Shown here: positions 1-50,723 of the stretch, one piece after another
How positions within the stretch are numbered: position 1 is the stretch's first letter
Layout: each line of letters starts with the position of its first letter
Assembly: GCA_044892505.1 (NCBI GenBank)
Contig: CM097882.1
Span: 368,714,001 to 368,778,000, forward strand
Length of the DNA: 64,000 nt
Source: Schmidtea nova
Lineage: Eukaryota
Direction of reading: 5' to 3'
The notes under the pieces: generated by a model
Seen by the model: only the letters and a program-made list of their open reading frames with translations
Told to the model about the DNA's origin: nothing
Database searches by the model: none
Position numbers and translations under genes: made by a program

Positions 1-3000
1 GGTGTTTGCTTACATAATTGGATAACATTCGAATCAATGTGCCGTTAAATCTTTCCGTTTGTCCATTGGTTTGCGGATGATATGGTGACGTTCGTAATTT
101 GGCTATTCTGAAGTAATTTGTTACTTCATCTAATATTTCACTCATAAAATTTGTCCCTTGATCTGTCAGTATTTGTTTCGGGGTTCCGTATCGACAACAT
201 ATTTCCTCTACTAAAATTCTTGCTACGGTCTTTGCTTTTTGATCCGGCATCGCAAATGCTTCAGGGAATTTAGTCAAATAATCCGTTATTACCAATATAT
301 ATTGATTCCCGTTTAAACTTTCTGGCAATGGTCCTATTACATCCATCGCAATGGTAGTCATTGGTTCCGCTGGTATTGGCATGGGTTTTAAGGGATTTTT
401 CCATTTCTTCCCACTATCCTTTCTTGTGGCACAAGTTAAACAGTTCTTTATCCATTCCTTTACGTCTTCGTCCATTGTTGGCCAATAATATTTTTGTCTC
501 ATGCGATCTAATGTTTTCTTATCGGACATGTGTCCTCCCAACTTTCCGTCGTGGTATTGAGTTATTATCTCTTTTCGTCTATTACCTGGCAGACACATTA
601 ATCGTTTTTCTCCATCCTGTATTAATAACCATCCTTTTTCTATTGTGTATCGATGTTGGTATTTCCTCATGTGTTCTTTTAACTCCGCATTGTCTTTGAA
701 TACATCCATATTCCGTGAGCTTAGGAATTCTATGATGGGTCTTAGTTCTTTATCCTCTTGCTGATCTTTCTTTAACTCGCTGAAATCCAAATCCTCTGCT
801 ATCATTATGCATATTCTTTGCACTTCTGGGTCTGTTAATTCTGGAAACGTTAATCTTGACATGCAATCTGCGTTGGCATTCGCTTTTCCTGATTTGAATT
901 TTATATCTGGTGAATATTCTTGTAATTGCATCGCCCATCTCATTAATCTGCTGGATGTTTCCTTATGTTGTCCTAGCCATACCAGTGGTTGATGATCCGT
1001 GGTTATGCATATAATGTGTCCCCATAATAGATATTTAAAGTGTTTTATTGCTAATATTATTGCCAATGCTTCTCTCTCCGTTACTGAATAATTCTTCTCG
1101 TGTTTCTTGAATGTTCTGCTATAATATCCGATCACTCGTTCTTTACCTTCGTCATCATATTGTCCTAACACTGCTCCTGCTGCATATCCACTTGCGTCAG
1201 TCGCGAGTAAGAACGGCTTCTTGAAATTCGGGTGAACCAATATTGGTGCAGTTATTAGCTTATCTCTCAATGTTTCAAAGGCTGTTTGTTGTTCGCTTCC
1301 CCATATGAACGATACGTCTTTCTTTACTAGCTCCTGGATTGGTTTTGCAATTCCTGCGTAATCCTTTATGAATTTTCTATAGTAACCGCATAATCCGAGA
1401 AATTCTTGGATCTGCGTTATAGTCTTTGGTATTGGACATTCTTTTACTTTATCAATGTTTCTGGGATCCGGTTCCTTTCCTTTTGCGGACACAATATGTC
1501 CTAAGAATGTCACTTTCTCTTTTGCCCAATCACATTTCGATGGTTTGAGCTTGAGTTTCCATTGTCTCAATCTCACAAATACATCTCTGATATCTTGGAT
1601 GTGTTGTTCAAATGTGCCTGAATATATTAACAGATCGTCGATGTAAACCATGCATTGTTTTATGCCGTGGGTGACAAAATTCATACATCTTTGAAATGAT
1701 GCTGGCGCATTGGTTAGTCCAAATGGCATTTTCCTAAATTGGTACAAGTCTCTTCCGATAGTGAAAGCAGTTTTCTCTTTGTCTTCCTCCTTCATTTTAA
1801 TTTGCCAGTATCCGCTTTTCAAATCCAATGATGTAAAATATGCCGCTCCTTGTAATGTCAATAACATCTCGTTGATGTCCGGTAATGGGTAGGTATCCCT
1901 TTTTGTAACTGCATTTAATCTCCGATAATCAATACAAAATCGTTGTGTTCCGTCTTTCTTTTTCACCATTACAACTGGGAATTGCCACGGTGAGCAGCTT
2001 GGTTCAATTACTTCTGCGTCTAGCATTTTCTGTACCTCTGCTTCTGCTACTGATTTTTGCGCTTCGGCTAACTTGTATGGTCTTAACGCAATCGGCGTTT
2101 CGTCTGTTAGTGGAATCGTATGTAGTGTGACGTCGCATGTCCCTAGATCTAAATCGGATGCTGCGAATATGTCTTTATATTCTATCAGTAGTCTTTCTAG
2201 CTGTTTCTTTTGATCCTCATTCAATAGTTGGCTATCAATGTTCCAAGTGGGTTCTTCCTCTTTTACTCCTTCTTCTATTGGTATTTCGATATCTATCATT
2301 GGAGTTAGTTTACCCAATCTTTCATTTTCATAAATTATTTTATCCTCTTCATCGAAATTTACTACATTTATTGGGATTTCTCCGTTGTCATTCGCACTCA
2401 CTAATCCCCTTGCCATTGGCAACGACTTTCTCTTTTCAAATCTTTTACTGGGTTCAAAGATCATGTCACCTTCTAAGGTAGGGTCTATTTTTACGAAGCA
2501 TATTTTCTCTCTCCGTGCTGGTACGATTATTTGTTTCGAACTTGTTACTTTTGCTTCTATTGCGCATATCTGTCCTGTCCTATCCTTTAATCTCATTGTT
2601 CCGAGGTCAATAACTATTTCTTTAAATAATGCTGGCATCAGATCCGTGCCTATAATGCATGGTACGCTCAGTGCTGGTATTACTGCTACGTACGTTTCGA
2701 TTTCCGTGTTTTGATGTTTTATCTTTACCCACCATCTTCCAGCAACTTCTACTACTTCTTTACTGCATGCTATTACGTGAACGTTGGTTCTCTCAATATC
2801 CCGTCTTTGTTCTTGTGGTATCCATTTTATATCTATTGCTGAGATATTTGCTCCTGTATCAATCATCGCTTCGATTTCCCTTCCGTTAATTTCGATTGTT
2901 GTAGTTAATACTGGACCGGTGTTTGATGACATTACTGCAATTGTATGTGAGTCTCCTTGCGGATCTACGCTTCTGCACCGTCTCGTTCTATAGTCTTCCG

Positions 3001-3148
3001 GTATCATAGGATATATGTTTGTCATCGGCATCATTTGCATTGTATTTTGTTTCATCCCCGGTGTTGGTTCTTGGTACATGGTTGGTGGGGGTGCGTAACA
3101 CTTCCACATTTCGCTGGATTCTTTTCGACGTACTGTGGTACTTGATTT
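1..3148 (-). CDS. pol: Pol of element A: aspartic protease, RT, RNase H, integrase (open to window edge, so absent from ORF track)
   Basis: Manual translation: AMIDTGA (DTG 2852-2860), VYIDD (~1635-1646), LATDASG (~1190-1210), YHDGKLGGH..CLTC integrase zinc finger, IAMD, LTDQGTNF, QTNGQTERFN. Frame opens after TAA at 3149-3151. Confidence 0.93.
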
Positions 3149-6100
3149 TTAAATACTTGACCTCCTTCGTTATCATCATCATCGTCGTCACTGGAATCGT
3201 CTTGGGTTCTGTACCCTTTCATTCTTTCCCATAGTCCTTTTCTCTCTTTCTTTAGTTGTTGTCTTGCTTGCTCGTTGTTCATTATCTTTTTAAATTTTCG
3301 TCCCACCTCTTCATCGGTTCCTTTCATTTTTGCCAGTATTTTTAGGAGTCTCTTTATTCGGTGAATATCTTTTGAATGACCGTGTAATACCATTGTTTTT
3401 GCCAAAAATGGTAAGAATCCTACCACCAATTTCCAATTTATTTTCTTTTCTCTTTTATAGATGTCAAAACAGGCTAACATTTGAGTTATTATTACCCGTA
3501 TTATTTGTATAATTAGTATAACACCAAGTATTCCTGCCATCATTTGTCCAAATATTAAAAATCTTCCCCACATCGCTTTCATCATGTTCTCCGTTGCCTT
3601 CTTAAAGTGGGCTGGTGACAATAATAATTCGTAATTTGGTCCACCTTGGTAATTTGTTCCTCCTGTTATTGTTACAATGCTGGATAACACCGCTTCCCTT
3701 CTTGCTGGAAATAGTATATTTTGTCTCGCTGCCTCTAAGTCTTTTGCGCTATAGAATCCCATATTACTTACATCTACGTCTTTAAATTTTCGCCCTTTTG
3801 ATAGTTGCATCAATTCAAATTCCCTTGGTGCTGGTACCTCTGTTCTTGACGGAAACATAACCCAATTTCCGTCTGGTTTTTGGTATAGTGGTCCATATGC
3901 GTTGCTGCAATTGAAAGGATTTGGTTCGAAGCTTACTGGATTTATGATTCTTGTCACTGGTTGCACATATCTTACCTTCCCTTTGTATTCGATTTCTAGT
4001 TCGTTAGTACACTGCCCTGGTTGTAATTTTGTCATTGTCGCTACCTTCGCATTTGTCTTTTTACATATGTATACATACATGACTTCTCCGACTACCCTTC
4101 CAAAATGACCTTCTCTTAATGGTAATAGTGGCATTGCACTATCTGGGTTTGTGATTGCTACTGCTAGTTTTGTCTTTAATATTTCCCTATTTAACATACA
4201 ATCGTTATTTATTAAGTCGTAATACACTTTTTGTAGTGACGCTTGTCCTCTATGGAATAGAAAATCCATTTTATTGTTCATGTAAAGGTGTAACTTAACA
4301 TCATTCGTGTTTACTTTGCGTTTCGCACTAGGTACTTCTTGTTTTGATACGAAAATGCCGGGGTAGTTGGTTTCCAACATGGCTACTCCGCATTTCAAGG
4401 CTGTTTTTCCTTTTACAAACCTCATTCCGATATCTGCATCTGAGGTAATTAGTTCCGTTGGTGTATTTCTCATTTTGATTTGTTTTTCTTGTGTTCGGGT
4501 TTCAATCTTTTTCTCTCCTCGTACTGTGTCTTGAAGTATTTTTCCTCTTGCTGCCTCGTCTTCTTCTTCCTCTTGGAAGGTTTTCCCTTGTATCTCATCG
4601 AATTCTGCTTCCTTTAACAGTTGTAGTTGACATTCCTTTCCTCGTATCTGGTAGGTTAGGGTTGATATACCAGTCTGACAAGTGTTTGACTCGATTTTGC
4701 ACATAGGTAGAGTTTTCATTTCTCCCGTCGTTGGATCGAAGAATGCCTCGTACGTTTTTAGTTCCACTGTATAGGTATCTATTACCACTAGGTTTGTTGC
4801 TGCTACTCCGAATATTGGATATGTTGCTCCTTGGCAGTACCCTTCTCCTCCCGTAATAGCTCCTGCTACATAATATGTTTGTTGCAATATCACTCCCGTT
4901 TTTCCTCTTATCTTTATTCTATCTCTAGTCTCTACTTCCCCATGTTTAAATAATTTTTCACAGTCTTCTCCTTGCAGCATTACCGATTCTCTTTCCGTTC
5001 CTGGCATCACGATTGCTGAGTAATGGCGGTGTCCACAATAAAAAGCAAATCTGGTTTTATAAACTTTGCATTCTCTGACCATTGTTCTTATCAGTTCAGC
5101 TTCCTGATATACGTGATATAATTGTCTCTTTTTTAATGTTTTTAGCTCCGTTGGGGTTGCGTCTTTACATTGTTCTGTCCCTCGTAGTGAATATTTCTCA
5201 CCTAATGCCATTTGATCACAATCGAATACTTCAAATGCTGTTGCTCCGTCAGTACTAATCATCCATATTAACATCATCATAATAATAGAACTCAAGTTTA
5301 GTGATGATTTCCCGTTTCCTGTTCCCGACTTTTCCTTTTCCAATTCTCCCAATATCTCTTCGAATTTCCTTTTCATATTTTTGGCTTGGTTTTTCTTTTG
5401 GTTCGTTTTTGTGAATGTTTCCCATCCTCCTTTACTGATGATGTACGGTTCTATTTCCTTCTCTATAATTTTGGCTGTATTCTTTATATGTCTTTCAAGT
5501 GCTGTGGGTTTCAGTCGACCTCTACTCAGTGTCAGCAGATTGTAAATGGTGTATGCCATAGCTATTAAATATTTGTTATCCGTCTCTGCTCCTTCCGTTA
5601 ACTTCTTTATCAACATCGTGGTTCCTTGCCAATCTAGGTGGTTTGACCTTGTCTTCTCTTTTATCAGTTCTGGTAGGATTGGTGCGATGGCGCTATGCAG
5701 TGATTTCGCCCTTTCGCTTATTTCGTTTATTCTCCACCATTTCTTTAATTCTGGATCGATTATTGCCAGTATTTCCATTAACATCTTTGATATCCATTCT
5801 TCGCCTTGGTATGTTTGTGTTGTTTCTTTTTCTTTCGTTTCGGCTATTTTATTTAGTTTCTTTAGACACAACTCCCATTGATCCCGTCTTTTTTCCTCTC
5901 TTGATTTTATAACTACATTTGCTGGATCCATCTTGGGTCTACCTCTAGGTCGTTTATCCATTGTCGTGCCCGTTTCTACCAATCTTGTTTCTCGTCCAGT
6001 TTCTTCTGTGACGTCTCTTGGTTCGTTGGCTCTTTCTTCTAACCATCTTTCCATTTCTTGTGTGAATTGTACATTTTCTACATTTGCCCTCCTTGCTTCC

Positions 6101-7935
6101 TCTTCTGCTATTTCATTTACTTCTTCGATGATTATTTCTTGTTCAACTTCATCTTCGGTGTTGGTTACCGGTATTGCTGTTGGTAATTCTTGAATTCTTT
6201 CGAAAATATTATCATCTTTCTCTTTTGTTAGCTCTATTAACTCCTCTAACATATCATCGCTATCTGTAAAAATTTCGTCTACATCGTATGGTTCTGGTGG
6301 TGTTCTTTCTCTTGTCTCTCTTGGTGTTGTTCTAGCTTGTTCTGAGCTTGTTCCTGGAGTCATTACCGATTTCATTGGGCTCGGCGTACTCATACTTCCT
6401 TTTGGTTTCTTTTCCTCTTTCAATTTCAATGGTTGGCCTGCTATTGCTGCCACTGTCAATGTATTTGCGATATCTAATTGCGCTGGCGTTATTCCAATTT
6501 CCAAGCTGTTATCTAATGATCGTCCTTGGTGTTGTAAATGGAATGGTGGTTCATATCTCAATTTCTTTTTAATGTCCCGAACTTTCTCCGCTATCCCTAC
6601 CCAAAACTCTTCCTTTTCTTGGTTCGGATATACTATTCTTAGGTGTACTTTCTGTGGCGATTCCTGCGAGAATTCTTGGTTTCTCCATTTTTTAATTACG
6701 TGATCCAATTGTTCTGGACACCACTCGTTAACTCTTTTGTATTCGGCGATTGCTTTTGCTACTTTACGCAAGCATGTTATGTCTTCTCCATTAACTACGA
6801 AAAAATCTGCGAGACCTTTTACTACTTTTCTCTTGCCGTGCGCATTGGTTTTTAATATTTCGACAAATTCTTCCGTTTTTTGTTTTTCTCTTTCCAACCA
6901 CATGGTTGTCGTTTCTGGTCCGTCTAAATCTGCTGGCATGGCTTTTCTTGTTACCATACAGACTCTTCCGGTTTCCGGTTTGTGATCGTCTTCTATGCCT
7001 ATTCCGTATTCCTCTTCGTATTCGCCTGCTTTTGGTTCCCAACATTTTCCTCGTTCGTTCCATTGTTTTTCTACAGGTGTTGGTAATCGTCTGTTGAGAT
7101 TGAGTTCTTCTAATACGTCTTCCCATTCTGGCCAAATCCGCCAATTTCGATAAATGTCTACTATTTGTTGTAATTTATGCACAACTTCTTTTTGTCGTTC
7201 CCGTTCTCTTTTCTCATCTTTAGCAGTTTCTCTTGGTGTATCGTCCATTCTGATAACGTGGATGGTTTGGTGATTATCCCATATACCAATTTTATATAGC
7301 CGTCTTTCATCGTGATCCCATAATACATGTTCGTTGTATTTCATGATTATGTCATCTTCCCATTCTTCTTCTGGTTCTCTTTGTAATAGTGTCTCGTTGA
7401 TGACATTTACTAATTCTTTTATGGTACAATCTGCTAGTACTTCAATCTCTTTGGTATCTTCATTAGGCAATTCCACTGAAATTTTTAGATCTGTTATTTT
7501 TCCTTGTCTAAACATTGCTTTTCCCATTTTGGCAATTACCTTTCCGTATGAGATCTGTGACCATCTCGTGTGACTTGTGTCACGTATGCACTCGATACAT
7601 CGTTTCAACTTCTCGTATTCGCTTCTCATTAACTCCTTTCTATGTTTTTTGATTTGTGGGATGATTTGTTCTATCATGGAATTTAGATTTCCTCGTAAGA
7701 TTCGTCCTTTCTCATATTCTAACCGTGGTTTTATCTTCTTCTCGAAACACGTATTCGCTTCCTTTGCTACTTCTTGTAGGTTCTCTTCTCTCTTATCATC
7801 GTGTATCGATAATGTTGTCACCTCTCCTGGCCATATGCCTGTTTCTATCAAATGCGTCCTTTTCTTCACCAGTCCATTCTGTGAATATAGGAATTTGTTC
7901 TTATACGAACTCCCTAATCTGTCTTCTACCCATCG
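3052..7935 (-). CDS. Cargo/envelope polyprotein: two ubiquitin-like domains, AT-hook, Bcl-2-like domain, signal peptide, chuvirus-like glycoprotein, TM
   Basis: Ubl-like ~7245-7490 and ~6440-6650; KRPRGRPK 5932-5955; PYIISKGGWETF BH2-like ~5413-5448; hydrophobic segment then AFEVFDC; MNNKMDF..NDCMLNREILK..NPD..GEVMYVYIC glycoprotein motifs; TM ~3490-3565. In frame with gag across one TAG. Confidence 0.8.
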   Translation of the reverse strand, partial: RWVEDRLGSSYKNKFLYSQNGLVKKRTHLIETGIWPGEVTTLSIHDDKREENLQEVAKEANTCFEKKIKPRLEYEKGRILRGNLNSMIEQIIPQIKKHRKELMRSEYEKLKRCIECIRDTSHTRWSQISYGKVIAKMGKAMFRQGKITDLKISVELPNEDTKEIEVLADCTIKELVNVINETLLQREPEEEWEDDIIMKYNEHVLWDHDERRLYKIGIWDNHQTIHVIRMDDTPRETAKDEKRERERQKEVVHKLQQIVDIYRNWRIWPEWEDVLEELNLNRRLPTPVEKQWNERGKCWEPKAGEYEEEYGIGIEDDHKPETGRVCMVTRKAMPADLDGPETTTMWLEREKQKTEEFVEILKTNAHGKRKVVKGLADFFVVNGEDITCLRKVAKAIAEYKRVNEWCPEQLDHVIKKWRNQEFSQESPQKVHLRIVYPNQEKEEFWVGIAEKVRDIKKKLRYEPPFHLQHQGRSLDNSLEIGITPAQLDIANTLTVAAIAGQPLKLKEEKKPKGSMSTPSPMKSVMTPGTSSEQARTTPRETRERTPPEPYDVDEIFTDSDDMLEELIELTKEKDDNIFERIQELPTAIPVTNTEDEVEQEIIIEEVNEIAEEEARRANVENVQFTQEMERWLEERANEPRDVTEETGRETRLVETGTTMDKRPRGRPKMDPANVVIKSREEKRRDQWELCLKKLNKIAETKEKETTQTYQGEEWISKMLMEILAIIDPELKKWWRINEISERAKSLHSAIAPILPELIKEKTRSNHLDWQGTTMLIKKLTEGAETDNKYLIAMAYTIYNLLTLSRGRLKPTALERHIKNTAKIIEKEIEPYIISKGGWETFTKTNQKKNQAKNMKRKFEEILGELEKEKSGTGNGKSSLNLSSIIMMMLIWMISTDGATAFEVFDCDQMALGEKYSLRGTEQCKDATPTELKTLKKRQLYHVYQEAELIRTMVRECKVYKTRFAFYCGHRHYSAIVMPGTERESVMLQGEDCEKLFKHGEVETRDRIKIRGKTGVILQQTYYVAGAITGGEGYCQGATYPIFGVAATNLVVIDTYTVELKTYEAFFDPTTGEMKTLPMCKIESNTCQTGISTLTYQIRGKECQLQLLKEAEFDEIQGKTFQEEEEDEAARGKILQDTVRGEKKIETRTQEKQIKMRNTPTELITSDADIGMRFVKGKTALKCGVAMLETNYPGIFVSKQEVPSAKRKVNTNDVKLHLYMNNKMDFLFHRGQASLQKVYYDLINNDCMLNREILKTKLAVAITNPDSAMPLLPLREGHFGRVVGEVMYVYICKKTNAKVATMTKLQPGQCTNELEIEYKGKVRYVQPVTRIINPVSFEPNPFNCSNAYGPLYQKPDGNWVMFPSRTEVPAPREFELMQLSKGRKFKDVDVSNMGFYSAKDLEAARQNILFPARREAVLSSIVTITGGTNYQGGPNYELLLSPAHFKKATENMMKAMWGRFLIFGQMMAGILGVILIIQIIRVIITQMLACFDIYKREKKINWKLVVGFLPFLAKTMVLHGHSKDIHRIKRLLKILAKMKGTDEEVGRKFKKIMNNEQARQQLKKERKGLWERMKGYRTQDDSSDDDDDDNEGGQVFKNQVPQYVEKNPAKCGSVTHPHQPCTKNQHRG

Positions 7936-10707
7936 CTAAATATCTTCCGTGAGTGGAGTTTTGATCCAAATCCTTGGCAAACATGTTTTTATCTCTATTA
8001 GAATTATATATTCATGGAGTGGTTCTTTTAATAATTTTCCTACGTATTGGCTTAGTGTTTCTACTTCCCGGCCTGGTAACCACTCTTTATAGTTCATTTG
8101 TAATATCGCTCTCATGAATTTCCGATAGTGTTTCTTGTCAATGAATTCCTCATTATATATTACTTCTAGCGCGTTATCTAATAATTTCTGGATCTCGTCC
8201 TCTTTTACTTGAATACTTTCTGGTGTCTTTACTACTTCTATCTTTTTGTCCTCAATTTCCGGTTCGTCTAGCATGTCCCCTGCTAGACTACTGACGTCAC
8301 TATCCTCTTCGTCGTCTGAAAAATTCTTTGCCTGGCCTCTCAACATGTTAATGTGTTTTATTTGGTTGATTTCACTTGGTGGATTTTCTGTTGGTTTCGT
8401 TTCACTTTCGCTAGTTTTTTGTGTTGATTTACTCTCGTCGTCTACTACTTCGACTTTTCTCATTTTTCGTTCCAACTCATCTATTTCTCGCAACCGTCTT
8501 CGTATCATTTTCCCTTTAAATATTCGACTGATTCGTGTTTCGTGACGCACTGGCGATGGAATTCCTTCTGGTTCTATTTCCTTGATTACCATCACATTCC
8601 TTTTTGTCTCTACTACTCCCATGTTTTCCCATGTATCCGTTAGTTTCAATTTTACTTCTGGTGCACCTTCTATTTTTAGGAATGCTTCTCTGGGCAGTTT
8701 CGTTACTCCTGGAGCCATTTCATTCACTTTATTGAACAATATTTCTACTTCTTCCTTTATGTTATATTGGAATCGAAACACGTGCTTGTTTGGCAAAATT
8801 ACCATCATTCCTCTTTTCCCGAGTTTCCTTTTCTCTTCTTGGTTCCCTTCTTTTTCTACTTCCTTTTCTGTTTCTTTTTCTGCTTCTTCATCTTCTTGTA
8901 TTATCTCTTTTCGGCCTTCGTTGTTGGTTGGATTCGGGTTTGTTGGATTTATTTCTGGTACAGTCTCTTTCTCGTGGGTATTTGTTTGATTGGTTGCTCT
9001 CATCATATTAATTCTTAGAGGTTGTCGTTCTCTTTCTTGCTGTTTTTGTTCCTCTTCTCTTTGTATTCTTGCCCATTCCTGAGCATGTCGTGCTTGACTT
9101 TCCCGATTCAATCGTTCGTTTTCGCTTTCTATTTTTCTCATCATATTGATTTGTTGTTGACCTGTTTGCGGATTTCCTCTGGTTGTATTGTTTATCAGCT
9201 CCGTCAATCTTTGAACCTCTTGCATTAAATGTATCTCTTTAGTGGTATTTTTATTTTGGTTATTATTATTACTATTTGGTTGGTTTCCGTATTCCGGTTG
9301 GTTTCCATTATTTGGCTGATTTCCATAATTCTGTCGGTTTCCACCAGTTGGTTGGTTTCCATAGTTTTGTCGGTTTCCGGTATTCTGCCAGTTTCCTCGT
9401 TGATTGCTTCTTTGTCCGCAATTTCTTGATAGGTGTCCAGGCCGTCCACAATTAAAACAGGTTATTGTGTAACATCTGCTCTCTGAATGCCCTTTTACTC
9501 CACATTTTCCACAATTCAAGTTCTGATAACATTCTTGTTTCCAATGTCCCAATTTCCCACATGTTTTGCATTGTTTCGTTGGTCCTTGGGGGTTGTAATT
9601 GTTTTGATTTCCGTAATTTGATACTTTATTCCCTTCATTCCTTCGTTGCGGTGGTGGTCGGTTTAATTGTTGTGAATTTGGAATGTGGTTATTCAGGTTC
9701 ACTTCTTGTTCGTTTTGTGCTGTATCCATAGCTAAATAGATTCTACCATCATTTCCTATCATGTGTAGTTCAAATCTATTAGCTGTTTCTAGTGCTTGGT
9801 CGATGGTTTTACAACCTTGACATCCAACTTGCGCTCTTATGTCGGGTCTTCTTAATCCTCCCACAAAGATAGCTGCCATTAACTCCTCATTTATTGGGCT
9901 GTCTTGATTAAAGATCAACTTTGCTAACTTTTTCAATTCGCTTGCATATACCGCATTCGATTCATTTATCTTTTGTTTCCTCATTGAGAATTCCGTGAAT
10001 GCCTCATTCAATACTTTATTTATTCCAAAGGTTTGTTGGAAAAAGTCCTTTATCGCTGACCAACTTGTAGGTGGATTAGTTCCATTCTTTGCTTCCAAAT
10101 ATAGATCTAATGCGCTATCTTTCAAATATAGCTGAATTCTGCTTACAGTTGTTTCTGGTTTCCACTTGCATACTTCCACGAATATGCCAAATTCCTTTAA
10201 GAAAGTTTCTAATTTACTCGCATCTCCATTAAACGGTTCTCCGGAAAATTTGTCTTTTATCTCTTCTCTTGGTTCACTCATTTCGATTCCGCTGTCTGTA
10301 GTTATTTTACTTTCGTTTCCTCTTGTTTCTAGTTCACTGTTAGGTTCGTCACTTGAATTTCGGTCGATCTCAGTTTCCTTTGCTGATTCGTTATCTGATG
10401 CTTTACTATCGTTATCGGTATCGTCACTTTCTGTTTCTTGTTCTACTTCGTCTTCTATTTCTTCTATATAATCGTTGTTGGTTTTGTCGACTTCTATTTC
10501 ACTTATTGGGTTTCTCTCGGGTTCTGCTTGATTTTCTTTGTTGCTTGAACTGTTGCTTGTTACTGATAATTTATCGTTTTCGATAATCGACTTTTGTATT
10601 ATTATCTGCCTTGCTTTACTTCCTTTTGGGCCTTTCTGATTATTATTCTTGGTAGCTTTATTCTTTTCTGCTGGTTTTATTATGACACTCTTTTCTCCTT
10701 TTCTCAA
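7936..10707 (-). CDS. gag: Gag of element A (capsid, three CCHC zinc knuckles, N/Q-rich region, C-terminal Ubl-like segment)
   Basis: EPFNGD..FLKEF, LYLKDSALD, RKQKINE, FVGGLR capsid motifs; CKTCGKLGHWKQEC, CGKCGVKGHSESRC, CFNCGRPGHLSRNC. Confidence 0.92.
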   Translation of the reverse strand: MRKGEKSVIIKPAEKNKATKNNNQKGPKGSKARQIIIQKSIIENDKLSVTSNSSSNKENQAEPERNPISEIEVDKTNNDYIEEIEDEVEQETESDDTDNDSKASDNESAKETEIDRNSSDEPNSELETRGNESKITTDSGIEMSEPREEIKDKFSGEPFNGDASKLETFLKEFGIFVEVCKWKPETTVSRIQLYLKDSALDLYLEAKNGTNPPTSWSAIKDFFQQTFGINKVLNEAFTEFSMRKQKINESNAVYASELKKLAKLIFNQDSPINEELMAAIFVGGLRRPDIRAQVGCQGCKTIDQALETANRFELHMIGNDGRIYLAMDTAQNEQEVNLNNHIPNSQQLNRPPPQRRNEGNKVSNYGNQNNYNPQGPTKQCKTCGKLGHWKQECYQNLNCGKCGVKGHSESRCYTITCFNCGRPGHLSRNCGQRSNQRGNWQNTGNRQNYGNQPTGGNRQNYGNQPNNGNQPEYGNQPNSNNNNQNKNTTKEIHLMQEVQRLTELINNTTRGNPQTGQQQINMMRKIESENERLNRESQARHAQEWARIQREEEQKQQERERQPLRINMMRATNQTNTHEKETVPEINPTNPNPTNNEGRKEIIQEDEEAEKETEKEVEKEGNQEEKRKLGKRGMMVILPNKHVFRFQYNIKEEVEILFNKVNEMAPGVTKLPREAFLKIEGAPEVKLKLTDTWENMGVVETKRNVMVIKEIEPEGIPSPVRHETRISRIFKGKMIRRRLREIDELERKMRKVEVVDDESKSTQKTSESETKPTENPPSEINQIKHINMLRGQAKNFSDDEEDSDVSSLAGDMLDEPEIEDKKIEVVKTPESIQVKEDEIQKLLDNALEVIYNEEFIDKKHYRKFMRAILQMNYKEWLPGREVETLSQYVGKLLKEPLHEYIILIEIKTCLPRIWIKTPLTEDI

Positions 10708-11254
10708 CGGGATTACTTTTGTATACTCAATTTTCCTGTCTTATCGTATTCCGATTCTTTTCTTCCTTGGTTGATTGGTTTGGTTTGATTGATTTATCTA
10801 AAATACAAATGTCACTTCAACGATACTCTATTGTTATCGTTGCGCTTTTATTCCCTTTTTACGGGACTTCTCATTACTGGGTTTCTATTATTTTTCCCCA
10901 TTCCCAGATTCCCCTTTATTTAAGTCTATTTAAATTATCTATATACTAGTCACAATTATCTATTTAGTCATAACAATTATCTATCGGTTATTAAAATACA
11001 TCAATTATTTTTCCCGCGGTCTCCCAATTTATTTGTCGTTCGAACGCTCTAATTCCCTGAGTCATTTGACTCGATTATTATTTTATCATCTCTTTATCTT
11101 TCTCTCTGCTAGCCTCTAATTAATTCTGCCGGTCTTTCCGGTCAGCTCCTATTTCTCAATTCTACTTGCATGCATTATTTTAGGTCGCATAATCAGCTTT
11201 ACTCGCATTTCTCTATTATCGGTGCGCACTATTCTCATTATCGTCGACGATCAC

Positions 11255-11470: not shown

Positions 11471-11484
11471 ATATCCGGATATCC

Positions 11485-12472: not shown

Positions 12473-12934
12473 TTATAAATAAACTACAATTCTATCAGCC
12501 ACAGAGAAATTGCACATGGGGCACTCATCACACTTATTCGCACAGTTTTTACAGAATCGAAAATGTCCGCATGGTAGAAACATTATTTGGATTTCACTGT
12601 CTTCGCATATGTAACATTGTTTATATTGTTTTGCTGCCTCGACCCCTTGCGACATCCATCGGTTATATGTTAGACTTAACTGCTGTTCTATATGTCGGCA
12701 TCTGATATTCAACTCGGCATCCTCTAATCGTGCTTTGTACCATTTATATCGCGTACTTATATCGAGTTTATTTACTTTCTCTATGATTTTTAATTACTCA
12801 GTTGTTTCCTCCGTTTGTGTCGTAGGTTCCTCATATTCGGATGCTCTTATTCGGGTTATTTTTTCGCAGACTGTCTCAAATGTATCGTTCTCGGTGTTAA
12901 AAAATTCTTCGATTTCTTTCAGTTTTTCCTCCAT
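12473..12934 (-). pseudogene. Coiled-coil plus C-terminal IAP-type RING-HC protein; one in-frame TAA at 12794-12796
   Basis: CYICED..IMFLPCGH..CKNC...CDECPMC...RIVVYL* at the extreme C-terminus; frame extends to ATG 12934 (MEEKLKEIEEF). Confidence 0.8.
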
Positions 12935-13238: not shown

Positions 13239-13256
13239 ATCCCGGCTGAGCCCCCA
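13239..13256 (-). other. Primer-binding site, tRNA-Pro type
   Basis: Minus strand TGGGGGCTCAGCCGGGAT, 16/18 match to the canonical tRNA-Pro PBS TGGGGGCTCGTCCGGGAT. Confidence 0.85.
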
Positions 13257-13801
13257 AATTTATGCTGGGATTATGGGTGGGTTTCAAGTAATTCAAATAA
13301 ATTATTAATCATTAATTGAACGACTATTGATGAGTACGTATACTAGGGATTCCACGCCCATAACCATACATAACATGACTACTACACGCGTATGCCCTTG
13401 ACTATTCCCTACTAGTCAAGTTGGTACTGCATACGGTGGTGGAAAAATGATGGGCAGGTGAGCTTTGTTGCCAAAACTACTCCCCATTTATCTTCCCTCG
13501 GGTCCTTGCTGCCGATAGAAGGTCTTACGCATTTTCATTCTATGGATGTTCGCCCTACTGAATTTTTTTATCACACGCCTTTCCCAATGACTTTCCTTAA
13601 TTTATCTACAATGTAATTAATCAGTCCCTGCGTATAAATGGTCGGTTTGAGAAAATTTCGGGTGCGATTTTTTTATTTCGATGATTTCATTGTTGTTATT
13701 TTATTTTATTTAGTAACATCCCCCGATGAGAGACAAAATTTACACAGAAATACTTTTATTAAAATACTAAAAACAGGATTGTTATTTTACATGGATGTTT
13801 C

Positions 13802-14386
13802 CTAAGCGAATTCCAGACTAATCTCCTGAATCAATTCCGCTTCGGTTAAGGAGTTCAAGTGGTGGATTTGTTCGTCCAGACGCTTCGCAAATTCTCGGCG
13901 ACGACGACGCTGTCGCGATCCCATTCGATGTTTTCGAAGCTGTTGGGTTATGACCGGTGCTGACGCTATTGTTCTCGGGGGATCACTGAGAAAAATAGGC
14001 AAATCTTCCGTTGTAAGAGAGGGGGCCAGGATGATTCCCTCTTCCGTCCCGCAAGCGACATCTTGGTGAGTGCATTGTATCCAGCGCTGAGCCGTGATCG
14101 GCCGGATTAGCGCTCGCAATTCGGAGTCGATGTAACTTCTTGTTACTGCATTTAGGCAATTTCGGAGTTCTCGCTGGACGGCATCTAGTTCCAATTTGGT
14201 TGCAGCCAGTGCTTCCTGCATTCGCTCAAGTTTTTTCGACTGGTCCTTCATTTGTTCGGGCGAGAACCACTTCGCTCTCAATTCATCATTGGCGACCGTG
14301 AGTCGCTTGATCTGTCGCTGCTGGTCCCTCAACTTCCTCTCTTGGATTTGTCCCATGATTTTCTTGGAATTTTCTGAAGTCGGCAT
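13802..14386 (-). CDS. Hypothetical 194-aa coiled-coil protein with Arg-rich motif (RQRRRRR), inside putative LTR
   Basis: ATG-initiated GC-richer ORF; AATAAA on minus strand at 13755-13760. Confidence 0.55.
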   Translation of the reverse strand: MPTSENSKKIMGQIQERKLRDQQRQIKRLTVANDELRAKWFSPEQMKDQSKKLERMQEALAATKLELDAVQRELRNCLNAVTRSYIDSELRALIRPITAQRWIQCTHQDVACGTEEGIILAPSLTTEDLPIFLSDPPRTIASAPVITQQLRKHRMGSRQRRRRREFAKRLDEQIHHLNSLTEAELIQEISLEFA

Positions 14387-14704
14387 GTTATCTGAATATT
14401 ATAACGATAAATTCGCTGGAGGACCTATCAACAATTCTATTTTATTTAGTCTACTATTTACTATTGTTAAACGAGATGCATATTAATGTTTTTAATTATT
14501 GAGTTCTCTACAAAATTATTTAACTATCTAATCATTGAAGACTCAAAAGATTTATTGAACTAATTTTATATTAATAAATGAATTTCCTAATGACTATAAC
14601 AACTACAATACTAAATCTACATGACAACACTATTAACAAAATGAGACACTTCCGAATTTTTAAAACATTTATTAAATTCAAAAAACAGGCGGCCATTGAT
14701 TCCG

Positions 14705-15172
14705 CTATTCATCTTCGGTCATTTTTCCTCGATATGAAAATATCGATCTGATTTGCAAATTTGTGTTGATATTGGACGAGGCCTGCTGAAAACGGATCCT
14801 CTCAGCTTCCCGAAGGGGTCGTATTGCTGTATTGAACTTGAACCCCAATTCCTTGAAGGTAGAGGCTGGAATGAACCCCCAATATATCACACATTTCGGG
14901 AATCCTCCCTTATCCAACATCAGGACGAACCAGGCGGCGTGCCATGATTCGAATTCCTCGTCTGGAATGATTGGCCAACTAGCGCATCCCCGGTACCATA
15001 CGTGATGCCGTGGATGGTCCCATACTGTAAAGGGACAGGCGGTTTCAAGCTCTCGGCGCCATGCCCACATTTTTTGATGGATTTGCTGTAAAATCTCGAA
15101 AGGAGCCGGCTTTAATGGGCTAACTCGGGCTCGTTCTTGTCGTTTTTTGATAGTGTATCTATGCTTAGTCAT
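14705..15172 (-). CDS. Hypothetical 155-aa Trp-rich protein inside putative LTR
   Basis: ATG-initiated GC-richer ORF; AATAAA on minus strand at 14668-14673. Confidence 0.5.
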   Translation of the reverse strand: MTKHRYTIKKRQERARVSPLKPAPFEILQQIHQKMWAWRRELETACPFTVWDHPRHHVWYRGCASWPIIPDEEFESWHAAWFVLMLDKGGFPKCVIYWGFIPASTFKELGFKFNTAIRPLREAERIRFQQASSNINTNLQIRSIFSYRGKMTEDE

Positions 15173-16096
15173 GATTCCAAAACGATGCTGAATTTTATAA
15201 TAGTTACAATTTACATCAATAATTAATTATAGTAAATGTTATCTCTCATCGTGATACCCTTATTATTTGCCTTCCCCTTAGACCTTAGCTGAAATCACGA
15301 GAAACTGTCGTTCGCTATGGTATGCATTACTCTCGTATCTACTTAGCTTTATCTGTTTACGATCACTATTATAGTTGAAAAAAAAAAAAAATGGTGATTT
15401 GTCTGCTTGGATTTTCAAAATATTGATACCTCAAAACGGAAGCTCTCTCACGTCATGTATCCCTAGCTTATTCGAAAAACGCTCCTTTGTATCAAATGCG
15501 GTCGACATAATTTTCCTAAGGTTTATTAGACGTTTATTAAACAGCTGCGCTGTGGTGAGGGTGAAAAATTGTGCCTCCTCCCGGTTAACAAATTCTTTCA
15601 TATCTTTAAGCTTTATCAAAAAATTATCGTCCCCTCTGTAGCTAAAATGATCGGAAAATAATTCCCCGGATTTGTTGGGTGTCCCATGTGCAAGTCTCAA
15701 CCACTACTAATAAAATTAGGTTTTGCTATTTATTACTTTACCGTGTGTGGAGCCCTCGAGCACCACGCCACGGACGGACACCTTGGGAACCTAAAGCTCC
15801 CAACGGCGCGAGATTAATATGATAGATTAAACAGTTTAAATACGACATAAATCAAAATGAGATGAATAATATATTATAATATGATAATGACATATGAATA
15901 CAACATCAAATAATGTACCAAAAATACCTCAATTGAATTCTGAAAATTTATTGATCAAAATCGGTCTAAACGGTGATCGTCGTCGGGGCAATGTGCAATC
16001 TAATGCGAATTTTTAGTTAAAGTCTAAATTTCAGTCTAACAAAGTCTACTGAAGTCTCACTCTAGTCAAACGTCTCAGTCTGATTTTATGAAAAAT

Positions 16097-16120
16097 CTGA
16101 TCAGTATTTATACTGATCAG
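16097..16120 (-). promoter_or_regulatory. TATA box (TATAAATA) embedded in inverted repeat CTGATCAGTA..TACTGATCAG; candidate LTR promoter
   Basis: Seen directly, ~400 bp inside the proposed LTR start. Confidence 0.5.
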
Positions 16121-16633
16121 TCGTGTCTAGACCGACCAATCAGGTTCGGCCATTTTCAGGGTGGTTTTTAATTATTGTTCTTGATTCTAATTAATTTTTA
16201 TTTTTTAGATTGTATTCTTCCTCGGAGGTCTGGGTTTCAAAAACAATTATTCAATAACAAGTACTTTTATTTTGTTTTAATTACCATTATTTGTATTTAT
16301 TTTGTTTTTTAGATGTCTCCTGGGCCAGTTAATATCTCGAAATTCCTCTATTTTTATTTATAGCTTGTACTTAGTTTGTCTATATTTTTATTATATTACT
16401 CCTTTCTTTTAATAAATAAATATTCCCCTTTTTATCTTATTTTTCTCTTTTTTGTTTTAATTAATCTACTTTTATTTCACTGTTCTCTCTATTTGGCTGG
16501 CCCAACAATTATTTTAATTTTATTATTAATTATTTATCATAATTATCTTTTTTCACCTTTGATCTTTTTTTATTATTATTATCAATAATTCTCATAATGA
16601 CTATAGATCAAAATTTTTTTTTTTTATAAACAA

Positions 16634-18612: not shown

Positions 18613-18650
18613 TTGTTTATAAAAAAAAAAAATTTTGATCTATAGTCATT

Positions 18651-40155: not shown

Positions 40156-40937
40156 TTAATCATTGTTTTTTCTGTGCAGAAGTTTTTTATCTTCGTTCTT
40201 GGGGTTATCTTTTTGTTGTATATAATTTCACCGTTGTACTTTCTTATACATACTTCTACTGGTCGCTTGTTGTCATTTTTATCAATTGCAAATTTTGCAT
40301 CCATGAACATAATTAGTTGGTGTCTCTCTTCTGTGGATAATTCATTGTGTGTGAAAGATATTTTTTCATTTATCCAGCTTTGATCGTACCAAGGTTTTGA
40401 AGGGATTGGCGGCATTGATTGGAATGGATTTGATATCAGAGGGATATAGAGTATCTCGATTCCTATGACACACGGTAAGTTGTTCATTTGGATTATGAGG
40501 TGATTAAAATCTTCTGGCATACTTCTGTTGTTTGTAATTGTTTTGATGATGATTGAACAATTACTTGTTGTGATTATTGGTACTTTATGTTGGCAAATTG
40601 ATACCTCGGTTTTTGTCATGTGGAATAGGATTCTATGTGATACCTTTTTTCCTTCGATTACCGCTTTGTCGACATTAAGATGTTTTTCAAATGTGCCGAT
40701 TAGGTCTTTTAGTTTTGTTCGTCGAGCTTCATTAAATTTGATAATGTGTAGTTCTCTTTCTTCAATTTCCACTTTCATATCATTTGGGATGCATACTTGA
40801 TTTGGGAAGCTTCTGATTGTGATTGGATTTCCATCGGTACATATTTTATTTTGTAGGGTTTTGTAAAAGTTTAGAGGGTGTTTGTTGATCATAGCTACAT
40901 AGTTCATAGATCGAGAATAATTTGGCTCTGATTGCAT
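40156..40937 (-). CDS. Extra 3' ORF ending in a DEDDh (REX4/ISG20-like) exonuclease-like segment, cut by gap
   Basis: IMFMDAKF..PVEVCIRKYNGEIIYNKKITP..IKNFCTEKTMI resembles ExoI and following strands; expected Glu is Lys. Confidence 0.5.
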
Positions 40938-40953
40938 TGTTAATTGAAGACAC

Positions 40954-41106
40954 AAGAATCGGGATATTGATTGATAAGTTAGTAAACAATAAAACACTAA
41001 GAATCGGGATATTGATTGATAAGTTAGTAAACGATAAAACACTAAGAATCGGGATATTGATTGATAAGTTAGTAAACGATAAAACACTAAGAATATAGAT
41101 TGATAA
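40954..41106. repeat. 45-bp tandem repeat, about 3.4 copies
   Basis: AAGAATCGGGATATTGATTGATAAGTTAGTAAACRATAAAACACT. Confidence 0.9.
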
Positions 41107-41373: not shown

Positions 41374-44300
41374 TTATACCAATGTGGACCTCGAATATTC
41401 ACCTGGTATATATTTATCCAAATGGAAATGCCCTGGTACATTTCTGACCAGTTGGCTCCGATACCGCTGCCTTTTCCATTTGTACTTTTTATAAATTTGT
41501 ACGCTAGTTATTAAAGCTAAAACTGCTAATGCTATTATTGATGTTGTGATGACATAAAAAGGCCAATGTGGATTTTTATCTTTTTTACGAAATGCTTGTA
41601 GTTCCTCTAAGTTATGTATCACTATTGGTCTTCCTTGCCTTATTTTGATAGGTTCTTGTTTTTGTTTTTTGGCATTGTATTGTTTTTGGAGTTTGGCTAT
41701 TCCAGTGCTTGTTGGTATTTCGTTTGTATGTAGTGTGGTATTTAGTCTATTATTTGATGTCGTTGTTGTGCTTTTTATTCTATCGGGTGTTATGTTTTGG
41801 TTTTTTATTATATCCTTGGGTAATTGTTCTGTTTTTATCTTTTTGCATCTCCATGTTGTTGTATCTGTGTTTCTCTGTATGCAGATTCTATATATTGTAT
41901 TAGGTGTTAGTTTTGTGAAATTAATATAGTTTCCTCTTTCGATTTCGTTGGTTGTTCTGTCGTCCTTTCCTTTTATCATCTTTGGGTTTTTCCCATTCGT
42001 TGTTTGCATGTATAAATCAATTACTCCTCTATTTATGATAAATGCTCTAACTTCGTTTGTTGATATTTTTATTAATACTCTGTCAAATTCTATTGTTTCG
42101 GTTGAGCCAACAATTGTTATGATTGTTAAGAAGATAGCCGATATTATTAGTTTGTTATGAGATCTTAGATTATACTTGTGAGGTTTATCTATCGTGACCT
42201 CGGCTTCCGCCAACTTGCATCTGTTGACATGTACTACTATTGGATCCTCGTTTTTATGCTTTTGTAAATGTAAATTCTCATTTATTACTTTTACTACTTC
42301 ATATGGACCTTTATATGGTCTTGCTAATTTTGTTGTCTTTCCCTTTCCTACTTGTGGTGACATAAGTCTAACCTTATCACCTACTTTAAAGTTGTGTGGT
42401 TTACTATTTTTGTCGTAGTCGGCTTTGTATTGTTCTTGTCTATATTTGACTTTTAGATTGGCTACTTTATACACTTCTTGCAGTTTTTCCTGCATTAGTG
42501 TGACATAATCTGGTGCATCTAAATATTGTGATACTCGAGGTTCAAATATTGTATCTATTGGTGTTGCTGGTTCTCTTAAAAACATTAAATAATACGGCGA
42601 ATACCCTGTTGTTTCGTTTGGAGTGATATTATGAATGTATGTGCATTGACTTATGTATTCGTCCCAATCATTTTGATTTTTTCCTACAAAAACAGCTAGT
42701 CTGCTTAGTAATGTCCCATTAAATCTTTCTACTAGTCCATCAGTTTGAGGGTGATACGCTGTTGTGTTGATCTTTTGCATGTTAAAAATATTAGCTACTC
42801 GTTTTATTAATTCACTAGTAAAATTTGTTCCTTTATCTGTTAATAATCTTTTGGGTGTGCCTATCTTGAAAATAATTTTTTCTATAAGCAATTTAGCAAC
42901 TGTTTCTGCTGTTTCGTCTTTTGTTGGAAATGCTTCTGCCCATCTAGTAAAATAATCACTAAATACTAGTATATGTTTATTCCCATTAATTGTAGTAGGT
43001 AATTTACATAGAAAATCCATTGCACATAGTTCCATTGGTGATGTTGTTGCTGGAATGGGGTGTAACGGCGCTTTTGTTTTTGTACCTGTATTTTTGCTTG
43101 TTGCACATATTGTACACGCGTTACACCATCTCTTAACATCTTTCTTTAATTCTTCCCAGTAATATTTTTGTAATAATCTACTTGCTGTCTTTCTAGATGA
43201 TAAGTGACCTCCTAATGCTCCATCGTGATATTGTAGTAGGAGTATTTGTCTTAATTTCTGAGGTACTACTATTAATTGCTTACCGTTGAAATCTTCTATT
43301 ACTACTAGTTTCTTTGATATTTGATATTTTGAATTGTTTTCTTTTCTGATTTCATTCCTTATTTTAATGATTTCTGGGTCTTTCATCTGTTCCTCATATA
43401 TATCTATTGGCTTTTCTGCTACTAGTGCAAATATTTCAAGTGCTCCTAATTCTGGTATTCTTGATAGTGCATCTGCGTTTTTATTTATTCTACCTGGTTT
43501 ATATATAATTTTTAGGTGCATGTCTTGTATTTTCATTGCCCATTTAAGTAATCTACTTGATGTATCTTTATGTTTCCATAAGCCTTCTAATGGTTTATGG
43601 TCTGTTCTTATTATCACTTCAGTTCCGTAGATGTATGGTTTGAATTGTTTTAGGGCAAATACTATTGTGTAACATTCTTTTTCTATTGTTGAATACCTCA
43701 GCTGTGCTCCTTTTAATGTTTTACTGGCATATGCTATTACGTAATCTTTCCCTTTCTCTTCTTCTTGGCCTAATACTGCTCCTACGGCTTTCCCGCTGGC
43801 ATCCGTCATTACTATAAATTGTTTTTCGAAATTTGGGTATCTTAACACTGGTGCTGTTATCAATCTTTCTTTTAGTTTGTCGAATGCTTCTTGATGTTCT
43901 TTTGTCCATTTCTTTTGTATCTTGTTAACTTTATTGTTAATTTCTTGTACTATTAACACGTCTTTGCATTCTCCTTTTGTTTTAATTCCCTTTGTTAGTT
44001 CTATTATAGGTGTTGCTATTTTTGCATAATCTTGTATGAATTTACGATAGTATCCTGTTAAACCTAAAAACCCTTGTACTTGTTGTACTGTTTTTGGTAT
44101 TGGGAATTTCTTTACAACTTCTATTTTTTCTGGATTTGGTTTTATCCCTTCTACTGTGACTATATGCCCTAAAAATAGTGCCGAAGACTCTGCCCATTTA
44201 CATTTGGTTGGTTTAATTTTTATCCTTGCTTTTCTTAGTCTCTCAAGTACGTTTGTTATATCTTTTAGATGTTCCTCGAATGTCTTTGATGATATTAATA

Positions 44301-44740
44301 TGTCATCCATGTAAACTGCGCAGTGTTGTACATTTACTAATATTGTGTTCATTAGACGTTGAAATGTGGCTGGCGCATTAGTTAATCCGAAGGGTAATCG
44401 TGTGTACTCATATAAACCATCCTCAATAACAAATGCTGTTTTCTCTGCATCCCCTTCTTCCATTTGAATTTGCATATACCCCTTATTCGCATCAATGACT
44501 GAAAAATACTTAGCATCCCTAAGTTTATCATATTGCTCTTGTGCTTTTGGGAATGGATATGAATCTTTTACTGTTACATCATTTAATTTACGATAGTCAA
44601 TGCACATTCTTATTTCTCCGTCTTTCTTTTTGACGGGTACAATGGGTGATGCCCACTGTGAAAAACTTTGTTATATTACACCTGCGTCTTTTAATTCTTT
44701 AATTTGTCGCTTTATCTCCTCTCTTAGTTTGTATGGTACG
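41374..44740 (-). CDS. pol: RT-RNaseH-integrase fused to signal peptide, FN3-like domain, S/T stalk and TM
   Basis: CIDYRKLN, LPFGL, YMDD (44302-44313), TDAS, HDGALGGH..CTIC, AMD, LTDKG, GLVERFN, YKGPY; then LIISAIFLTIITIVGS, LTPNTIYRICI, WPFYVITTSIIALAVLALI. TAA near 44671 and frameshift near 44745. Confidence 0.9.
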
Positions 44741-47710
44741 CTATATATGGTCTTTGTTTTATTGGTCTTGCATTGCCCGTATCTATTACATGTTTGATTA
44801 TGTCAGTATCTCCTAAATCAAATTCATGTTTTGCAAAAACATCGCTGTATTCATCTATTAGTGTCTGTAATTGTGCTTGTTGTGTTATTGTTAGGTATTT
44901 ATTATTGATTTTCACTTTGTCGTATGATTTTATACTATTTGTCTTACTAGGTTCGACCACTCTTTTGCCGTTATCATTTATCACGCTTGTCTCGCTGACT
45001 TCATACGTTTTCTCTAATTTGCCTTTGAATAGTTTTCCCAATTTTGTGCCTTTGTGTATTTTTATATTACTTTTTTCATAATTCGCTATTCTTAATGGGA
45101 TTATTCCCTTTTTTGGAATTACGCATTCATTAGTTAACATTATATTTTGTGTAATTGCCGTTTCTGGCTCGAAAATAAAAGTGTCCTCACTTTTGACGTT
45201 AACTTTTATTGGGATTATATGATCACACTCATATTCTAATTCGAATGCTTCTAATGCAACAACTTCCGTGAACTTGGACTTATGTTTGATAGCTTTTCTT
45301 TTAATCGTGTTATCCGTTAAGTCTATGATGCAGTTATTCAGCTTGTTGAGTATATCGATCCCTAGTATACATATGCTATTGCATTCTTGTACTACTTTAA
45401 ATATGTGGTCTATTACTTGTTCTGATGTTTCAACTACTAATTCAATATCTCCTTTTAGTGGAATGTAGTGTGCTGATAGTGTTACTACTTTATCCGTTGT
45501 TTTCATAATATTTCTCTTTTGACCATCTGTAAGTTGATCTTCCCTAATCAGGGACGTTGCTGCTCCAGTATCTACTAGTGCATTTATGATTATATTGTTT
45601 ATAATTATTTTAAGTCTTGGCCTTGCTTCGTTTGCTGTTTCTAATTGCTCCATCATTTCGACTTCCAAGCTATAACAACCATATATTTTTTTGGGTTCAC
45701 AGTAACAATTCTTACTTTCTCTAGGAATTTTAATCTCTATATTTTCTTGTAACTCTTTTAATTGTTCTCTTTGGTTTTCGTATAGTCCTTGTTGTGGTGC
45801 ATTTCCTTCATGTGATATATGCGTTTTAACTATTTCCTCATTGTTTTCATCATCTATCAATATTTGCCTTTCTTCATTCCTTTGGATTTTTATTAAACGT
45901 ATTTCTTTATCATGTTTTGCCGTAATCAGGTATTTGGCTACAAACGGGCATAAACATGCTAGTAATTTATATGAATTTCCGAAAACTTGTTTCAGCTGTC
46001 GTAGTGATACTAAAGAAGAACAAACCATTTTTAGTAAAGCAACCGTATAGTAAATTCCCAAAATTGTAGAGAACATGTTTCCAAGGACTGCAAAATATCC
46101 CCATATACTATATAATACTTTATATGCTACTTTTTTGAAATATTCTTTTGATAACAACACGTCAAAATTGTAATTTCCTCCGTAACTTCCTTCGATAACT
46201 TTGTTTACCATTATTGACAGTATTCTTTCTTTTTCGTTTGGGAATAACATGTGTTTTCTTGCACTTTCTATAGCTTCTCTCGTATATATGCCATTGCTAT
46301 CCATATCGTTGATTTCTTTAAACTCCAATCTTTTTTCAAGCTCTATGAGTTCTAATTTGAGTGGTTTCATCGCCTCTTTCCTATCTGACATAGATATCCA
46401 CATTTCGTCATTTATTTTGTATAATGGATCTAATAAATTAGTGCATTTTTCTATTTTTCTTGGTACATATGTTTTTTCTGTTAGTATTCTAGTAATTGGT
46501 TGAAGGTATACCCTTTCTCCTTTGTATATTACTGGTAACTCATTTGTGCACTGATTGTTTGTTGCCAATGATACACTAACAGGTTTGCATTGAAATGTCT
46601 GTATCACTTCTCCTACTATCCTGGCAAATGTTCCTTCTTCTGAGAAGATTATTGGTGCCATCAAATCTGGGTTTGTTACCGCGACTGCCATTTTTGTCCT
46701 TAATATTTCTCTGTTGAGTTTGCAATCGCTCATGATTGTTGATTGATATACTTTATCTAATTGCACTAGTTGATTATGATAGAAAAAATCTACTTTATTG
46801 TTGAAATATGATGCGAGTTTGACGTCGAATTTATTTACTTTTTGTTTTGCATCTTTGACTTCTTCTCTACTTATGTATATCCCTTCATAATTAGTTTGTA
46901 TTATTTCCTTACCACATTTTACACTTTTCCTTTTTCTAACGAACCTCATTGCTTCGTTTTCAGATTCTGACATATATATTGTTGGTGTATCTTTTTCTTG
47001 TACAATTGTTGTTTTTCTTTTTTGATCTCTCACTCTTTTTGAGTCTACATCTGTGAACTGTTTCCCTTTGATTTCTCTAAATTTTAATGATTTTAATTTT
47101 GTTAATTGGCAATCGTATTTATCTATTTTATATATTAGCATTGATTCTCCTGTATCGCAATATGATTCTTCTAATGTACAAAATTTGTATATCATCATTT
47201 TCTTTGAGCTGCTGTCAAATGATGCCTTGAATTTTCTTAGTTCTACCATGTAGTGCTTCTTACTACAACATTACTGAGTTTTTCACCCCATACGGTATAC
47301 TCTCCTCCTTCACAATAACCCCCTTTTGATGTCCATCCTACAATATTTATGTCCTGTCTCATCTTTGCTCCTATTCTTGCTTCTAGCTCGATTCCTTTGT
47401 GACCGCTATATTTAGCTTTCTTTGTTTTAAATGCCTCCTCACAATCCATTGGTGATAATATTACTGCTTCTGGTGTCCATGTGGGTTTTAAAACTGTTCT
47501 TGCCCCAGCATGGCATATATATGCTTCCTCCTGATACTTTATGATGCACTCTTTAGCTTCCGTATGAATAAAATCTGATTCTTGATAAACATGAGACATT
47601 TGAGGCTCTGACATGATTAATTTAGTTGGATTTGCTTCTGGTCAATTTTCGACATCCAACAATGAATATTTTTGTCCCCATTTTGGGTTTTGACAATCAT
47701 ATGCTATTAT
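44724..47710 (-). pseudogene. Chuvirus-like glycoprotein fused in frame to aspartic protease; nonsense at 47642-47644 and frameshift near 47250
   Basis: IIAYDC; YFNNKVDF..SDCKLNREILR..NPD..GEVIQTFQC..CTNELPV; TM ~46040-46110; then ALVDTGA (45564-45572) with no stop between. Confidence 0.85.
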
Positions 47711-50705: not shown

Positions 50706-50723
50706 TCCCGGTTCGCGGCACCA
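50706..50723 (-). other. Primer-binding site (tRNA-Phe- or His-like, unresolved)
   Basis: Minus strand TGGTGCCGCGAACCGGGA, 2 nt after LTR end ..CAACA. Confidence 0.8.

Follow-up and report, generated by a model that had tools for sequence, protein, structure and literature searches.

A stretch of Schmidtea nova DNA carries two diverged retroelements in which what looks like a viral envelope gene lies between gag and pol. This raises the question whether the glycoprotein is a working part of these elements, made as a segment of one Gag-glycoprotein-Pol polyprotein, and whether such an arrangement is new. The elements are called A and B here. The window is the whole stretch of 64,000 nucleotides that was analysed, and the features found in it are listed in Table 1.

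Table 1 Features of elements A and B in the window (TM: transmembrane segment).
Feature	Position	Strand	Evidence or remark
A 5' LTR (TG...CA, ~3.25 kb)	13263..16507	(-)	LTR-to-LTR alignment
A primer-binding-site-like 18-mer	13239..13256	(-)	
A leader, small RING-finger ORF	12476..12793	(-)	PF13920 E 3e-12
A Gag, capsid-like region and three CCHC knuckles	9418..10281	(-)	Retrotrans_gag E 0.002 in a different copy
A cargo region, weak Bcl-2-like segment at its end	5305..9417	(-)	Bcl-2 E 0.06; alignable to Bcl-2-like region of B
A internal signal-peptide-like segment, predicted	5239..5304	(-)	Hydropathy
A glycoprotein, predicted class III	3380..5238	(-)	Ectodomain with 14 Cys, TM ~3573-3480, then a weaker helix
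A Pol (protease, RT, RNase H, integrase)	1..3148	(-)	Runs past base 1
B 5' LTR	50726..51863	(-)	Outer end reaches a stretch of N
B primer-binding-site-like 18-mer	50706..50723	(-)	
B Gag, one CCHC knuckle	49355..50476	(-)	
B Bcl-2-like segment	47882..48076	(-)	PF00452 E 1.4e-4, under the curated cut-off
B internal signal-peptide-like segment, predicted	47711..47773	(-)	Hydropathy
B glycoprotein, predicted class III	45930..47710	(-)	TM 46109-46014; broken here by a stop and a frame break
B Pol (protease, RT, RNase H, integrase)	42200..45650	(-)	
B second membrane module, in frame past integrase	41374..42150	(-)	Signal-like, FN3-like ~42070-41830, TM 41565-41490, short tail
B accessory ORF2	40156..41000	(-)	Related to ISG20/REX4-like exonuclease ORF; first acidic motif altered

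Element A runs from window position 16507 to roughly 12 kb before base 1, about 28.4 kb in all, with a 4-bp target site duplication (TSD). Its 3' LTR lies some 9-12 kb before base 1 (loci L021/L022), and the LTR pair has a single mismatch over 3,248 aligned bases. Beyond base 1 the frame continues into ankyrin repeats and then a second membrane module. The 5' leader also contains tandem repeat arrays with units of about 40-61 nt (window 11237-12025). Copies of the B family measure about 13-14 kb, and their LTRs are at least about 1 kb long. The copy in the window is truncated in the ORF2 region and has no 3' LTR there; its cut end adjoins a Polinton/Maverick-like element. The primer-binding-site-like 18-mers are taken to be of the tRNA-Pro type in A and the tRNA-His type in B, and the RING-finger ORF is presumably IAP-like.

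Both elements have the same order: Gag, cargo, Bcl-2-like segment, signal, glycoprotein, TM, protease, RT, RNase H, integrase. The glycoprotein measures about 600 amino acids, with CCHC knuckles upstream and the Pol domains downstream. In A it starts at about 5238-5235, and the protease motif DTGA is found at 2860, with its counterpart in B at 45572. The initial annotation had placed a signal peptide, a Cys-rich ectodomain and a TM between Gag and protease in both elements, and they are indeed found there.

The copies in the window are not intact. The minus-strand frames of A are 10740-7936, 7935-3052 and 3148-2, with a stop in the cargo region at 7936-7938; the frame is broken again at about 3050-3150, in the interval between glycoprotein tail and protease. 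Those of B are 50608-47642, 47270-44724 and 44670-41374. Here the glycoprotein itself is hit twice, by a stop (47642-47644) and by a frame break (about 47250-47280), and a third lesion, a frame break at about 44670-44724, lies in Pol. The statement that the glycoprotein of B runs into ALVDTGA with no stop therefore holds for its last two thirds; the earlier part contains the stop and the first break.

Copies elsewhere in the genome were scored, with a hand count of the best 71 of 3,773 candidates for A and the best 74 of 3,604 for B; since only the best candidates were scored, 71 and 74 are not copy numbers. Of the 71 scored A copies, 32 are open over 5,000 aa or more (exactly 5,140 aa in 23), and of the 74 scored B copies, 25 are open over 3,050 aa or more; the ORF of B is about 3,070 aa long. 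A family search found a related family with single frames of 3,381-3,401 aa. Gag-glycoprotein-Pol continuity thus follows from unbroken sister copies, despite the damage in the window.

Three copies have LTR pairs that differ by 1-3 bases. TSDs of 4 bp flank both of the A copies checked, and nine of the ten B copies for which both ends were located (12 B copies were examined). Both are thus gypsy-type LTR elements that inserted recently, and each family has multiple intact, near-identical copies.

The glycoproteins match the Pfam family PF24664 (Monjiviricetes_fusion), with E 1e-69 for A and 2e-71 for B. A model of the A glycoprotein, built from the window's own sequence with a 116-sequence alignment, has a pLDDT of 89. 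Among viral models, Foldseek ranks the glycoproteins of chu-like viruses first (E 2e-41, TM-score up to 0.65). Every listed match in the PDB is a herpes gB, the best with E 1.5e-13. TM-scores for the fold are 0.4-0.65, for a monomer model. Because of these rankings the glycoprotein is assigned, by its predicted fold, to class III and the gB/chuvirus type, as the initial annotation had supposed. No furin-type site was found in the ectodomains, and they have 0-1 N-glycan sequons.

A dN/dS comparison, suggested early on, gives 0.03 for the G ectodomain in all three pairs (window A against another A copy, two B subfamilies, and families C against D). The RT-RH region gives 0.03-0.04 in the B-subfamily and C/D pairs, the latter with nearly saturated synonymous sites, and G is as low as RT. 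Judged by these ratios, the glycoprotein is under strong purifying selection.

How might such a protein be made? The tails of G have one strong hydrophobic segment in 18 of 18 cases, with a 19-aa Kyte-Doolittle mean of 1.8-2.6. Where a further segment follows the TM, it is weaker (at most 1.7) and proline-kinked. Charge-free hydrophobic cores are concentrated in four places: on either side of G, past integrase and close to the C-terminus. Read from hydropathy, this pattern fits a cytosolic Gag, a luminal G and a cytosolic Pol, which is the RNA-virus-like topology proposed at the outset.

The best overall explanation, and in our view a probable one, is a polyprotein that is threaded through the ER membrane and processed into cytosolic Gag and Pol, a membrane fusogen and a second surface protein. 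The product of the unbroken copies would likely be cut by signal peptidase and by the element's own protease. The hydrophobic segment preceding G would act as an internal signal, and the single TM after G would return the chain to the cytosol, where the protease could act. Past integrase, a second signal would export the final module again, giving a second ectodomain and a second TM. The outcome would be a membrane-anchored fusogen plus a second, predicted fibronectin-type surface protein. An envelope of this kind would let particles fuse with other cells, for cell-to-cell spread or entry into the germ line, as insect errantiviruses do.

Some observations fit this scheme less well. The helix behind the TM in the G tails is conserved and moderately hydrophobic, and would leave the protease on the luminal side if it spanned the membrane. 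The ectodomains lack a furin-type site and have few or no N-glycan sequons. The post-integrase module of A has a short additional hydrophobic stretch that the simple topology model does not explain. A single frame also fixes the output of Gag, Env and Pol at 1:1:1, an odd ratio for a virion if there is no splicing or other control.

Equal amounts of the three products and the absence of a furin site from the ectodomains are unusual enough to consider that the glycoprotein has been retained for some intracellular or cell-cell task. This could be membrane tethering of particles, fusion between host cells or interference with related elements, rather than extracellular infection. Purifying selection shows function, not infection. 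The available text of PMC8532177 describes BURRO1 RNA inside differentiated cells upon piRNA loss, and does not mention particles. However, the complete five-domain-type class III ectodomain, with its conserved cysteines, has been kept across families with an identity of only about 33% in the glycoprotein region, which fits a working fusogen. We consider such an intracellular or cell-cell role unlikely, and prefer the processed polyprotein with its fusogen.

As to ancestry, both elements have the Ty3/gypsy (Metaviridae) traits of TG...CA LTRs, primer binding site and TSD, and their Pol domains follow the order PR-RT-RH-IN. A quick, unrooted tree of G proteins splits 16 polyprotein-type Gs from 37 others, with an SH-aLRT of 95; the 37 were drawn from about 110 stand-alone-length matches, and the 16, of which P0014 and P0018 end shortly past G, are also the top search matches. 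Among database relatives, P0008-P0011 and P0023 have tandem protease domains, two or more, after the glycoprotein.

It is very improbable that A and B are BEL/Pao elements of the Anakin type, or took their G directly from them. The Pfam glycoprotein family is the same, and the available text of PMC13524379 reports an Anakin-type glycoprotein beside a gypsy pol as well. The Pol domains of A and B, on the other hand, match gypsy-type Pfam models (RT_RNaseH, Integrase_H2C2 and a weak Tf2-like SH3), and no DUF5641 or Pao-type Pfam match was found in either. In the tree, P0060, the one relative in the set that has DUF5641, falls deep among the stand-alone Gs and apart from A and B. We take this domain to be a link to BEL/Pao, and the placement of P0060 then agrees with the earlier claim of a gypsy lineage separate from BEL/Pao. 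By these Pfam matches, an indirect criterion, the backbone of both elements is classed as gypsy-type.

From the Bcl-2-like region through G, A and B align in a continuous block of 912 aa at 33% identity, with 39% in Pol; such a continuous block implies a cassette from a common ancestor and not two insertions. A separate nested insertion, or an endogenous viral element lodged between gag and pol, has next to no chance of being right: close relatives of the glycoprotein are stand-alone proteins about 650 aa in length, as is usual in RNA viruses, but dozens of copies carry it in frame, which already refutes the idea, four families of this genome and also database polyproteins have it at the same place, and both the A/B block and the quick tree speak against an insertion. 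The glycoprotein is an integral part of both families.

A second membrane module follows integrase. Each of the seven polyproteins long enough to include this region (A, B, C, D, P0010, P0013 and P0021) has signal-like and TM-like segments there, some of them at a lower threshold only. There are four module repeats in A and one in B. One repeat of A was modelled as a beta sandwich (pLDDT 80), and the best PDB matches of this model are FN3 scaffolds (prob 1.0, E 6e-3, TM-score about 0.55). Profile and Atlas searches also point to FN3, below significance. The module in A and B is predicted to be FN3-like.

The post-integrase modules cannot be aligned between families. Their dN/dS is 0.58 in B and 0.34 in A, both based on few changes, and 0.16 in C/D, in all cases above that of G. 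Retroviruses have env after pol, a position that matches that of the module. That the module helps particles attach to cells is a guess, one that fits position, topology and rate. In three B-family copies (G000 C1:494.28 Mb, C2:46.65 Mb, C2:378.33 Mb), G-PR is 96% identical to that of the window and the modules only 77-78%, a difference that suggests module swapping. B and families C, D and E end in S/T-x-V, presumably a class I PDZ-binding pattern; A, P0010, P0013 and P0021 do not.

These could be enveloped retroviruses with two components and a flavivirus-like polyprotein that crosses the ER membrane four times, pairing a conserved class III fusogen with a fast-evolving, swappable FN3 attachment protein. 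This is offered tentatively, as something we would not bet on. Equally speculative is that, with the FN3 protein at the retroviral env position, fusion and receptor binding would be divided between two proteins, as in herpesviruses. To our knowledge such a split has never been described for a retroelement. If the module is the receptor-binding partner of the fusogen, retroelements would have an entry design that is new for them. No published account of the module was found, and the figures or supplements of the known flatworm-element papers may annotate it.

Further ORFs follow the polyproteins. After that of A there are three (L021 3263-4672, 2087-3172 and 1432-2025): a TRAF-like ORF with zinc fingers and MATH, a coiled-coil-like one and a small TM protein. 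Related families have an ISG20/REX4-like exonuclease ORF in this place (L087 5587-7035, L053 511-2937), with a PDB match of E 6e-7, and ORF2 of B is homologous to it (E 1e-16). Rotifer LTR elements also carry DEDDy ORFs, according to the available text of PMC5408684. Upstream of the gag of a related element, a 536-aa kinase-like ORF lies on the opposite strand (L091 7877-9484).

The window contains other mobile DNA. Directly adjoining the 5' LTR of A, 16535-21446 has a 1.8-kb perfect inverted repeat and an 869-aa RT ORF, which we would label a Penelope-like element. The Polinton/Maverick-like element next to B spans about 27000-39880 and has an A32 ATPase, a chromodomain integrase, a jelly-roll capsid and a protein-primed PolB. 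A second, decayed PolB is found at about 21700-24100.

The layout itself is not new. The initial annotation had advised a check against planarian Burro elements, and this proved decisive. In the available text of PMC6431247, Burro / GYPSM1 are giant gypsy-like planarian LTR retrotransposons, with an env in frame between BCL2 and protease that matches mononegavirus fusion glycoproteins. The paper terms this the first such case. As described there, Burro shares with A the single ORF with Gag, CCHC, cargo, Bcl-2-like segment, in-frame env, PR-RT-RH-IN and ankyrin, and also the TRAF/MATH cargo, a size class of about 30 kb (A is 28.4 kb), LTRs of several kb (3.25 kb in A) and an ORF length near 5,000 aa. 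A Burro-like ORF1 of 5,140 aa is given, the same length as the commonest A frame.

There are differences as well. The same text gives gypsy Env homology along with the mononegavirus matches, whereas the predicted fold in A and B is class III. The TRAF ORF of A is downstream of ORF1 and not upstream. Burro internal regions reach up to 25 kb, and B at its full size falls short of giant. The post-integrase membrane module is not mentioned for Burro in that text. By comparison with the published description of Burro, A is classed as Burro-type and B as a compact relative, not a giant Burro.

PMC13524379 (Chary and Hayashi, eLife 2026) describes, in its available text, GAG-ENV-POL elements with a gB-type env in Platyhelminthes, Nematoda and Bryozoa, including six from Schmidtea mediterranea, Smed_errantivirus_1-6. 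A and B resemble these HSV/gB-type errantiviruses in the gB-type env between gag and pol and in having multiple intact copies. Compared by eye, the printed ectodomain of Smed_errantivirus_3 is close to that of B, and those of Smed_errantivirus_5 and 6 resemble that of A. The main text does not discuss a one-polyprotein topology or cargo.

Anakin BEL/Pao elements show that an LTR element can capture the same glycoprotein family (available text of PMC7642597), but on a BEL/Pao backbone where A and B have a gypsy one, and, on indirect evidence, on a separate branch of the G tree. Predicted fold and Pfam family are common to the G of A and B, that of chuviruses (Jingchuvirales) and herpesvirus gB; unlike these, the G of A and B is one segment of a Gag-Pol polyprotein and comes after an internal signal-like stretch.

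Two matters are under-described: the processing of a single ORF across the ER membrane, and the role of the faster-evolving second surface protein. Being young, high-copy and intact-looking, the A and B families are useful for asking whether enveloped retroelements move between planarian cells, and stem-cell-rich planarians are a setting for that question. The gag-env-pol layout is real and functional-looking, but was already published (2019, 2026). Planarian Burro, the GAG-ENV-POL errantiviruses of flatworms, and A and B all represent one and the same system.
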